The notes beneath the pieces are model-generated. The model did no database searches. It worked only from the letters and a program-made list of their open reading frames with translations, and was not told the origin of the DNA. The position numbers and the translations under genes were made by a program. Below, piece by piece: positions 40,601 through 43,600 of a DNA stretch of 64,000 nucleotides. The DNA comes from a virus (lineage: Duplodnaviria > Caudoviricetes). The stretch covers positions 544 through 64,543 of the IMG/VR virus record IMGVR_UViG_3300028430_000741; one strand, 5' to 3'. Position 1 is the stretch's first letter; the number at the start of each line of letters is the position of its first letter.

Positions 40601-43600
40601 AAAAGCTGTATTTCACCACTACTATCGGGAGTTGATAATCTAGTAGTTAAAGCACTTTTTAAACCCGCTTGGGCTTTAATAGATATATCTTCTAAGATTT
40701 TTTCTAGTGGGCTGTTTCCTCTATCTGTTTCACTACTGCCAAAATCGTCAGGAGCGGGCGGCAAAAGCTTTTGTGAGGATACCTTGTTAATTGCATCTAC
40801 AAAAACCCGCATTAATTCGGCGTTAGATTTAGCCCACGGGTCAGGTGTGCTATTTTGCCACGGATCGATTAAAGGACTAGCATATTTAGCCAGAATACCT
40901 TTTTTTATTTCATTTAAAGCTTGTTCTATAGAATTTAACGCTGTTATAGTTCTGTCTGTATTTCTGGTTAAGGATTGTTCTAGAAATACAGTAGGATTAA
41001 GCTTCTCAGTTTTTGGCGTAGTAACTTTTTCTTGCTTTGGAGGTATAGAAAATGGTTTTGTTTTAGGGTAGGTTATTTTCTCACCGTATTGCTGCAAGAG
41101 CGTGGGATTAGTTGATCCTAGTTCTATTAATTGTCCTGGCGTGGTTTGTTTTAACTTTTCTGGATCAACGGTTCGTTTTTCAGGTATTGGCAAAGGGGAT
41201 TGAAAACCAGACAAAATAGCCCCAGCCACGGCCGTTTTGTCCATCAAACCTTCATACTGATTATTCCCCATCATTCTATCTATGACGGTTTTCTTGTCTT
41301 CAATTTTTTGAGCGGCTGTAGGATTAACCTGTGATCCACCGAAGTCTATAGCCCGAATTCCTTGAGGCGAGAAAAATACGTTAGTTTCGGCCAAATCATT
41401 ATGGACAACACCCATTTTTTGTAATGCCGAGTTTAATTGTCCAACCTGTTTATAAAGAATGGTTGCCGCTTTATTGAAGCGAGTTTTTTCTTTTTGTGCT
41501 GTTTTTTCTAAACTTGTTATTTCTTTGTTTAATCTTTCTATTTCAGCTTCATTGCCTTCTTTTGTGACTTTATCTAGCGCAAGGGTAGCATCCGCCAATT
41601 GTTTCTGAACTTTCTTGAACGGTTGCGCTATTCTAGTTAAAATTTCTTTTAGCGTTTTTCCTTGTATTCTTTCGGTGACGATAGCTTTATCGGGAACCGC
41701 TTTATAAAGAAGCGGCGATAGTCTCCCCTGTAATTGTTTATATGTTTCTAGTTCATTAGGAGTTGCTATCTTTTTATTAACACCTTCTGGGTCAATATCG
41801 GTTTTATAAACAAATTCATCAGTTAAAAAGGCAAAGGAGCCGTGCATTCCTAGTTCAGGAAAACCCGTACCGATCGCTTTTATTTTGTCTATACTAGGGA
41901 CAATTTCATCGGTTAGTTCCGTGATTAATTTATTGTACGCAAGAATAGCCGCTTGCCTATTTCTAAATAACTTAGTTACTCTTTGTTTTTCAGCTTCATA
42001 ATCAATTTTTTGTAAAGCAGTTAAATTAGATGTTGAAGCAGTATATTCAGGGAATTGCAGATTTAAGTCTCTAACAATTTCTTCTTTGGGTAAATTTTTG
42101 GTAGGAAATGATTTTCCCAAAAAAGCGTTTATTTCGCTTGGGATTGTTTCAGTTGGGAAAAACTTAAGATTTTGTCTGGTTTCGTCCGATAAATTCCCGC
42201 CTCGACTAACATATTCTTTTGTTACCTTGTCAATCAAGGTAAACATTTCTATTAAAGCGTCTTGATAGGAGCCAAATTTAGAGCCTTCTTTTCTAAACCA
42301 TGGAATAGTTTCTGTCTGTAGCTTCCCAGTGCGCTGTTTTACGGTATTGGGATCGAGATTGCCAGCCCACCATGACGGTTTTTCAGAGACTTTTCCGGTC
42401 TGGAATTCCGTCATGGACTTATTGTATCCTTCTGCCACTTCCTGATATTTCAGAAAACCAGCAAAATCTCTAGCAAGGTTTTCTGGTAAATTAACGCCTG
42501 ACGCTTGAAATTTTTCTTTAAATTGTGATGCAATTTTGTCAAATTGATTTCTTAACTTTGCATAAAATTCTTCTGCTCCTTCCACATCTTTAAATGCTTC
42601 AATTGCGAAGTTATCTTGCATCATTTCTAACACCAAGTCTAAGACATTAGACTTGGTGGTTTGCCCATCGTATCCTTGCAAAAATCTGTGGAAAGGCAGA
42701 TCGGTATTAAATTCTCCTGTACTCAACACCGATTCTATTTGATTCATCGAACCGATTAACTCATAAAGCTTATCTCCTGCTTCTACAATTGCTGATATTT
42801 TGCCAGGAGATAAATCTGGAATATTGGCGTTAATTGTTGCAAAAAACTTATTTATAAATTCTATGTTTTTAAAAAGATGTTTCTGATGGTGATTTGCACT
42901 TCCATAGGGGTTTGTGCTTTCTATCCCCATAAATTGATTTGTTTTATTCCCGATCCCTAGAAGCTTGACAAAGCCGAGAGGATCGGACGTTAGCATTGAA
43001 GCCGTGAAGTTTTTGGGCGTGCTTTGAGTTATGTCAACAAAAGGGTAAGCTATCGCTAACGCTTGAGTATCTTTTACTCCCATAAATTGAGCGGTTCTGG
43101 CATATTGAATATTGTCCACACCACCCAAAGAATATGAAACAGCATTTCCCTTACGTCCTTGCTCTTGAGCGAGCATTGTGTTGGCTAATGCTTGAGCCGC
43201 AGCAGTTGATGGAGTAAAAACGTCTAAGCTAGACGATATTTGCCTAAAAGCGTTTATTAAGGTGTTTAGAATTTCTTCCCCTTCTAAAAAGGGTAAATTC
43301 CGAGAAATAAAAGCCTTAAACTGTTTTTCTGCTGGCCTTTCATTTTCTAAATCGGTATCGGTTTCAGGATTTTCTACAGGAATAAATCTTTTTTGGGGAG
43401 CTAACGGCTCTAAAGACATAGCTACTTTCCTACCACCTTGCCCCCCTCTAAATTGTGCGCCCCCAATGACGCTAACAACGTCTTCCCCTTCTTTTAATTT
43501 TGGAAAACCCGCCTTTCTTTCACTGTAAATCTTTTGGGCTTCTAGGGAAGTTCTGTAGTCCTTCATTCCCTGTACGAAGCGTAAAAAGGGGCTAATTTCT

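Follow-up and report, generated by a model that had tools for sequence, protein, structure and literature searches.

Enzymes embedded in tape measure proteins (TMPs) are known from peptidoglycan hydrolases such as the Rpf-like motif of TM4 and pb2 of T5. TMPs are described as sitting in the tail lumen, from which they are expelled at infection to form a conduit for the DNA (PMC10770324, PMC9022992). In Thermus phage P23-45, the 5,002-aa TMP gp96 is reported to carry an N-terminal two-barrel RNA polymerase, to be present at full length in virions and, 5 min into infection, to be located on the phage DNA (Chaban et al. 2024, PMC10770324). Kinases have been described in another setting, inside very large multidomain phage proteins that are predicted to enter the host with the DNA; these "polyvalent-protein" kinases are said to have an intact active site and a reduced C-terminal subdomain (Iyer et al. 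2017, PMC5512222). A further point of comparison is T7 gp0.7 (T7K), presented as an early phage kinase that disarms defence systems via promiscuous phosphorylation (PMC13645617). Here we describe a protein-kinase-like domain in the N-terminal part of a predicted giant TMP, encoded by 64,000 nucleotides of viral DNA (Duplodnaviria; Caudoviricetes; positions 544 to 64,543 of IMG/VR record IMGVR_UViG_3300028430_000741). This stretch, referred to below as the window, is nearly all of the 64,543-bp virus record, whose completeness is 100% (CheckV). By analogy with P23-45, we propose that a kinase or ATPase probably enters the host ready-made, together with the viral DNA.

The domain lies at aa ~898-1148 (41203-41955) of an open reading frame (ORF) on the minus strand, as do all features of this gene given below. 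It begins with a helix ahead of strand 1 (aa 898-911, ILAYNK, 41914-41955), evident in both the alignment and the model, in which N905 is nearly invariant and which is inside the stretch that aligns to RIO1 and RIO2. The N-lobe continues with a Gly-rich loop, IGTGFPELGMHGS (aa 925-937, 41836-41874), in which G933 and G936 are invariant, followed by VYK (aa 946-948, 41803-41811) with the strand-3 lysine K948 (41803-41805), NELETY (aa 964-969, 41740-41757) with the helix-C glutamate E965 (41752-41754), and strand 5 with the hinge VTERIQGKTL (aa 990-999, 41650-41679). Between the hinge and the catalytic loop, the AlphaFold2 model has a long antiparallel helical hairpin (aa 999-1077, 41416-41652), composed of two long helices at aa 999-1030 and 1033-1077 (model residues 119-150 and 153-197). 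Its length is variable, the stretch from K1000 to F1057 measuring 40-141 residues across the family. The C-lobe contains GVVHNDLAETN (aa 1079-1089, 41380-41412), of which HNDLAETN (aa 1082-1089, 41380-41403) is the catalytic loop with H1082, D1084 and N1089; AIDFG (aa 1099-1103, 41338-41352), of which aa 1101-1103 (41338-41346) are the DFG; and a short remainder (41203-41316) made up of one helix at aa 1111-1126 and another at aa 1137-1148, in which D1117 and R1124 are invariant. An earlier note on this DNA, made from its letters, had read a kinase-like domain with a coiled-coil insert at 41250-41890, inside the TMP. All of its motifs occur in the order given and in the reading frame of the minus-strand ORF 31675-44646, and the insert is the hairpin described above. 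The range that it gave (aa ~920-1132) falls inside the domain, and the folded unit extends beyond it on both sides. The note's placement of the domain near RIO, Bud32 and APH agrees with Pfam, NCBIfam, the best PDB sequence match and two structural searches, Foldseek and VIA-align. Either a missing kinase fold or catalytic residues that vary among homologues would, according to the note, have overturned its reading; as set out below, the fold is predicted with high confidence and the residues are conserved.

To model the domain we used aa 881-1169 (41140-42006, protein P0002) and a 27-row alignment of the window, viral and metagenomic loci, and returned proteins. AlphaFold2 predicts this segment with a mean predicted local distance difference test score (pLDDT) of 91.2 and a predicted TM-score (pTM) of 0.88. 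The elements run in the order N-terminal helix, three strands, helix C, two strands, two long helices, catalytic loop, two short strands, DFG and two helices (in AlphaFold2 numbering, strands 44-47, 57-61 and 65-70, helix 83-92, and strands 100-104 and 108-112). The model thus presents a two-lobed kinase fold of the protein-kinase-like (PKL) superfamily, with a five-stranded N-lobe that includes helix C and a helical C-lobe. Comparison of the model with the PDB by Foldseek gives 210 matches at E<=1e-3, led by RIO2, APH(2'')-IIa and PRPK/Bud32, and the top rows are kinase-like. In a second comparison, VIA-align against 48,161 representative chains, the top match is Bud32 (4ww5_A; Z 13.5, root-mean-square deviation 3.4, 180 aligned residues), followed by RIO1 (Z 12.6), RIO2 (12.4), WaaP (12.3) and Kae1-Bud32 (12.1); 50 of 50 among the matches listed are kinase-like.

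Sequence profiles give the same answer less strongly. When the domain alone is scanned, the top six Pfam matches all belong to the kinase clan (RIO1 at 7.1e-5, Pkinase at 4.5e-4, then Kinase-like, Kdo, Choline_kinase and APH). Six NCBIfam Bud32 models match at 2.7e-9 to 1.7e-5, all far under their equivalog cut-offs, the best PDB sequence match is again Bud32 (E 0.051), and the neighbours in a protein language model fall in Pkinase, RIO1, ABC1 and APH clusters. Taken from sequence only, the kinase signal is weak but consistent. Short motifs can be imagined to arise fortuitously in a long, low-complexity ORF rich in coiled coils, and the single-sequence Pfam scores, which are near or under their cut-offs, would be in keeping with such a chance resemblance. 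This explanation can scarcely be credited, and we regard it as refuted by the high-confidence AlphaFold2 model, by the kinase-like neighbours listed by Foldseek and VIA-align, and by motif residues that are invariant among homologues.

We then asked how well the active site is conserved. Our conservation set comprises 38 homologous domains plus that of the window, giving 39 rows, 35 of them distinct (30-99% identity). Eight positions, G933, G936, K948, E965, G974, R975, G996 and K1000, are kept in 35/35 distinct homologues. A further eight (H1082, D1084, N1089, I1100, D1101, G1103, D1117 and R1124) are conserved in 34/35; the only homologue to depart is P0030, a 476-aa fragment that drops out of the alignment partway through the catalytic loop. 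E992, in the segment of strand 5 and the hinge, is likewise kept in 34 of 35, with one D, and the middle residue of the DFG is F in 8 members of the family and L in 26. At the nucleotide level, comparison with L004, a relative at 96% identity, shows 22.5 synonymous differences and 11.5 that are non-synonymous, a ratio of non-synonymous to synonymous change (pN/pS) of 0.14; the differences in two 99%-identical relatives are 2 non-synonymous changes only. The kinase domain is under purifying selection.

These data bear on whether the fold might be a pseudokinase, that is, a non-catalytic spacer or interaction module of the tail ruler. A hairpin of 40 to 141 residues looks spacer-like, and the Gly-rich loop of this clade carries an insertion. 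Pseudokinases usually lack some of the residues that bind ATP and Mg or that catalyse transfer. Here all residues for ATP and Mg binding and for phosphotransfer persist in 34-35 of the 35 distinct homologues, some of them as divergent as ~30% identity, and this, with the low pN/pS, makes a purely structural role very unlikely. The model and the alignment instead indicate a minimal kinase of the Bud32/RIO/WaaP/APH grade with its catalytic residues intact.

Comparison with characterized kinases suggests that the domain is related to several families and lies outside most of them, its position relative to RIO being borderline. In the case of Bud32/PRPK, the kinase/ATPase of KEOPS, which gives the best structural match and the best profile match (TIGR03724, 2.7e-9), the likeness extends to overall design, since Bud32 is also a minimal kinase with a short C-lobe, an HxDLxxxN loop and no activation segment. 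However, the domain scores 36.8 bits against an equivalog cut-off of 125 (TIGR03724/NF0114xx), has a hairpin of ~80 residues and an N-terminal helix that Bud32 lacks, and is an internal part of a phage TMP, in contrast to the partnership of Bud32 with Kae1 and Cgi121; it is not a member. RIO1 and RIO2 align over model residues 6-271, the helix before strand 1 included, and lead the Pfam and Foldseek matches, respectively. The Pfam RIO1 profile (PF01163) scores 22.9 against a cut-off of 22 on the domain alone and 18.7 on the whole protein, over profile positions 103-149 of 187 only, and the ribosome-biogenesis context of the RIO kinases is absent. For the eukaryotic-type protein kinases (ePK; Pkinase, PF00069) the score of 20.1 bits, over profile positions 84-148 of 263 only, is below the cut-off of 31.7, and the domain is not a member. 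Unlike ePKs, the domain has neither an activation segment ending in APE nor the C-lobe helices G-I: in the family alignment and the AlphaFold2 model we find no activation segment and no conserved APE-like motif after the DFG, where just two helices follow within ~48 residues, and the catalytic loop, HNDLxxxN, lacks the ePK lysine.

The absence of that lysine is also what would be expected if the domain phosphorylated a small molecule, lipid or sugar, whether cytoplasmic or at the membrane's inner face, in the manner of WaaP/Kdo kinases, aminoglycoside phosphotransferases (APHs), choline kinases and maltokinase. WaaP, together with maltokinase (Z 11.9) and many APHs (10.5-11.5), lies within about 1-3 Z of the top structural match, and there are weak Pfam and NCBIfam matches to Kdo, APH, choline kinase, homoserine kinase and Kdo kinase. 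The strongest profile matches, however, are all six to Bud32, the C-lobe is far shorter than the substrate-binding C-lobes of APHs and choline kinases, and the second kinase type that occupies the equivalent position in sister TMPs (see below) matches protein-kinase profiles. We consider a small-molecule substrate improbable.

The polyvalent-protein kinases (PMC5512222) are a further family to which the domain does not belong. That clade is described as being marked by an insert between the catalytic His and Asp, among other markers, whereas here H1082, N1083 and D1084 are contiguous and invariant in the family. The C-lobe of our domain is reduced as well; the long helix ahead of the catalytic loop is retained, as are two helices that follow the DFG. 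The term "tape measure" does not occur in the main text of that paper, and in the published literature that we searched, supplementary files excluded, we find no kinase embedded in a TMP; such files could hold relatives. Kinase domains in huge injected phage proteins have been proposed before (PMC5512222) and enzymes fused to TMPs are known.

The assignment of the carrier follows from its own profile match and from its neighbours. The ORF (31675-44646, 4323 codons) is open from a TTG at 44646, and the database protein P0003 (4308 aa) begins at an ATG 15 codons inside it, giving a TMP gene at 31675-44601. Pfam TMP_3 scores 50.1 bits on the whole protein and 54.5 bits on the piece scanned alone (cut-off 41). 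The TMP_3 core domain is at aa 2602-2775 (36322-36843) and is followed by hydrophobic segments at aa 2804-2900, part of a set that spans aa 2552-2900. When the protein was scanned as nine overlapping pieces, Pfam returned only TMP_3 and one weak TetR_C match at E<=0.01. Directly downstream of the TMP gene are genes for a minor tail protein (phrog_329) and a tail protein (phrog_4271), upstream is a tail-completion/Neck1-like gene, and the large terminase gene is at 55701-57380. Because TMP_3 is above its cut-off and the neighbourhood contains tail, neck and terminase genes, we identify the kinase-bearing ORF, from its sequence and gene context, as the TMP of a siphovirus-type phage. TMPs set tail length at roughly 1.5 Å per residue. 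Using this rise, or scaling from P23-45, where a TMP of 5,002 aa is given for a tail of >800 nm (PMC9022992), we infer a tail of around 650-700 nm. In 50,697 phage records, the complete TMP gene has no match by megablast, and the large terminase reaches an identity of 42% at most.

Next we examined the distribution of the domain. HMMER over 1.84 billion representative proteins of any length returns 24 matches at E<=1e-3, 22 of them at E<=1e-10. Of the two weak matches, one is a fish PIM-2-like kinase and the other a 1388-aa protein of unknown kind. Among the strong matches, 19 are proteins of 1925-5797 aa and three are short (377, 455 and 476 aa). One of the short homologues has no start Met and runs on into TMP-like sequence, its counterpart being a 1,368-bp contig of an alphaproteobacterial metagenome-assembled genome (MAG), and another stops in the catalytic loop; all three are apparently fragments, judging from their sequences, and not standalone forms. 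A word-indexed search limited to proteins of 2377-7566 aa returned 22 proteins at 37-100% identity, of which 15 are named "tape measure domain-containing protein" at the source and 20 have a precomputed TMP_3 match. Even among five distant homologues without a phmmer match to the core of this TMP, 4 have TMP_3 above the cut-off, always C-terminal to the kinase. In these searches the domain family is restricted to giant tape measures or what look like fragments of them. Automatic Pfam labels already flag PF00069 on a few of the TMP relatives.

Using aa 2550-3050, around the TMP core, as a query and scoring the 1534 candidates that shared most words, we obtained 13 proteins. Profile searches show that 9 of these carry the domain described here (type 1), 3 carry a second kinase (type 2) and 1 carries none. 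Type 2, found in P0043, P0045 and P0046 at aa ~970-1346, the same N-terminal region, has the motifs GQGFTGAVY...AIK and HFDLNTEN...IDF and lacks the hairpin; in P0043 it passes the Pfam Pkinase cut-off (35.3 against 31.7). The two types are distantly related (hhalign 96.7%, E 4.5e-10), and phmmer between them gives no match. P0019 (4479 aa) has both, with type 1 spanning aa 818-1125 and type 2 spanning aa ~1400-1710. Alignment to the sister TMP P0043 locates the exchange: identity is 79% over aa 16-175, 73% over aa 1231-1578 and 84% over aa 2390-4323, and between the first two of these flanks aa 176-1230 (40957-44121) have no BLASTP match. Since this gap sits between conserved flanks, we conclude from the sequences that a cargo block of ~1050 residues has been exchanged for another, again with a kinase. 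The cargo region is also AT-richer, with a GC content of 0.37-0.41 at 38-44 kb versus 0.47-0.51 at 32-38 kb.

The exchange is relevant to a different account of the domain, in which it would mainly bind and hydrolyse ATP in the Bud32/RIO manner, perhaps with autophosphorylation, and would act as a switch that drives or times a conformational step of the TMP itself when its N-terminal part encounters the ATP of the cytoplasm. That step might open the channel, free the DNA end or let go of adjacent cargo domains. Bud32 and RIO, which give the nearest folds and profiles, are themselves called kinase/ATPases in their descriptions, the domain lacks an activation segment and a substrate-binding C-lobe, and it is in cis with a protein that, as presented in two studies, must change conformation at ejection (PMC9022992, PMC10770324). 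In sister TMPs, however, the same slot is filled by a hairpin-less kinase that passes the Pkinase cut-off, and there is one relative with two kinases and one with none. This pattern of doubled, missing and swapped kinases fits a swappable cargo better than a core mechanical part, and we regard a switch as unlikely.

Kinases are not the only enzymatic domains in these proteins. According to precomputed Pfam matches, P0006, P0008-P0011, P0018-P0024, P0045 and P0046 have Peptidase_M23, SLT or Beta-lactamase2 domains that are absent from this TMP, and in P0045 the Beta-lactamase2 domain is near the C-terminus (aa 3982-4179). In this respect the relatives resemble the TMPs with embedded hydrolases, which also have an enzymatic domain inside the ruler protein; those hydrolases, however, act on the wall outside the cytoplasm and lie toward the C-terminus, whereas a kinase needs ATP and is found here in the N-terminal part. 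The C-terminus of a TMP, at the tail tip, exits first, and the N-terminus exits last, next to the DNA. This order of exit fits the layout in the relatives, with wall-degrading domains near the C-terminus and domains that depend on ATP or DNA in the N-terminal part.

Two other stretches of this TMP contain motifs of note. Downstream of the kinase are ParB/Srx-like motifs (DLNLDPERFQYK ... VVNGHNR ... QFDLFG) at 39103-39273 and 38638-38655 (aa 1792-1848 and 1998-2003), and upstream of it is a hydrolase-like stretch (SYSLGG ... AIAYPF ... HHQKH) at 42877-43137 (aa ~504-590), whose SLGG and AYP positions are present in the consensus of the 27-row alignment. The Pfam scan of nine overlapping pieces gave no match at E<=0.01 for either the ParB-like or the hydrolase-like stretch.

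Given the carrier and the intact active site, the account that we favor, and hold to be reasonably probable, is that the domain is delivered as an active enzyme, a phosphotransferase or otherwise ATP-using, with host proteins or proteins injected alongside it as its targets. The kinase domain would be built into the tail with the rest of the TMP and would leave the tail at infection. It would then reach the cytoplasmic side, where ATP is available, much as the N-terminal RNA polymerase of P23-45 does, and would transfer phosphate or hydrolyse ATP before any phage gene is expressed. Its most likely action would be to modify host or co-injected proteins, helping to establish infection. Delivery with the virion is suggested because the carrier is a TMP and because P23-45 gp96 provides a precedent. 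In both proteins an enzyme is placed in the N-terminal part of a giant TMP, ahead of the membrane segments and the TMP core; the enzyme is an RNA polymerase there and a kinase fold here, and presence in the virion and activity, experimental for gp96 as reported in PMC10770324, are inferred for our protein, as are its ejection into the cytoplasm and its substrate. The fold, the active site, the selection, the distribution and the recurrent slot were computed.

A more specific scenario can be put forward tentatively, as possible rather than probable. The TMP of this very long-tailed clade may be a delivery vehicle, with a kinase as a nearly obligatory part of its cargo: one is present in 12 of the 13 close relatives, in two divergent forms, and one relative has both. 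The kinase would be stored inactive, its N-lobe and C-lobe kept apart by the extended helices of the ~80-residue hairpin, and would snap into its active form on ejection. It would act in the first seconds, before phage transcription; one such action might be to phosphorylate host proteins that serve defence or bind nucleic acids, as the T7 kinase does once it is expressed. The comparison to T7 gp0.7 had been made in the earlier note, and it holds as a functional analogy; kinship between the two families does not, the T7-kinase profile phrog_2828 giving no match to the domain (E<=1) or to the 64.5-kb genome (E<=10). T7K also differs, as described in PMC13645617, in being an expressed early gene and not a part of the virion and in having DPV in place of DFG. 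By these sequence comparisons the domain is not in the T7 kinase family, and the parallel is one of function only.

Several observations weigh against a delivered, active kinase. A close TMP relative, P0044, lacks a kinase, which makes the domain dispensable. In the 50,697 phage records the domain has no match by tblastn, so no cultured phage represented there carries it, and the evidence is computational for all members of the family. The Foldseek query TM-scores are only 0.31-0.52, and we attribute these low values to the hairpin, which has no counterpart in the matches. Active-site changes do occur: two viral loci outside the set of 35 homologues have DLS for DLG, and in two rows HGD replaces HND. 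In this clade the Gly-rich loop has a 5-residue insertion relative to the GxGxxG of the family, with pLDDT 74-84 at this point, and the insertion might impair nucleotide binding. Because the nearest relatives, Bud32 and RIO, are called kinase/ATPases (in an NCBIfam name and in abstracts), phosphotransfer to a protein is not assured. Lastly, the tail lumen is given as 4 nm (PMC9022992), into which several copies of a folded domain of ~29 kDa would hardly fit; storage in an unfolded or extended state, with refolding after ejection, must therefore be assumed.

If the domain is indeed delivered by the tail, then it would differ in timing from the known defence-disarming phage kinases, which, like T7K, need prior expression: a tail-borne kinase would act before phage transcription, at the stage where immunity determines whether infection succeeds. 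After the virion RNA polymerase of P23-45, it would add a second class to the TMP-fused enzymes that work in the cytoplasm, and would support the view of giant TMPs as modular carriers of injected enzymes.

The window contains other features in addition to the TMP. With regard to the host, the HIP1 octamer GCGATCGC occurs 8 times in the window versus 1.07 expected, and 0 of 100 shuffles reach 8; HIP1 is associated with cyanobacteria, and may hint at a cyanobacterial host. An alphaproteobacterial host was considered and set aside, as the sole contig match in a scan of genome contigs is the 1,368-bp MAG contig with a fragment of the domain, too short to serve as a host signal. At 53062-54287 two genes overlap, one ParB-like/methyltransferase-like (phrog_620, phrog_498) and one for a Mom-like DNA modification protein (phrog_1384, 2.5e-56); the overlap lies at the end of the former. 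A 993-aa helicase (phrog_16, 1.9e-70) is encoded at 16200-19181 and has weaker N-terminal matches to families of the terminase large subunit. Just past the terminase gene, a single tRNA-Met (CAT) gene is found on the minus strand at 57384-57452.

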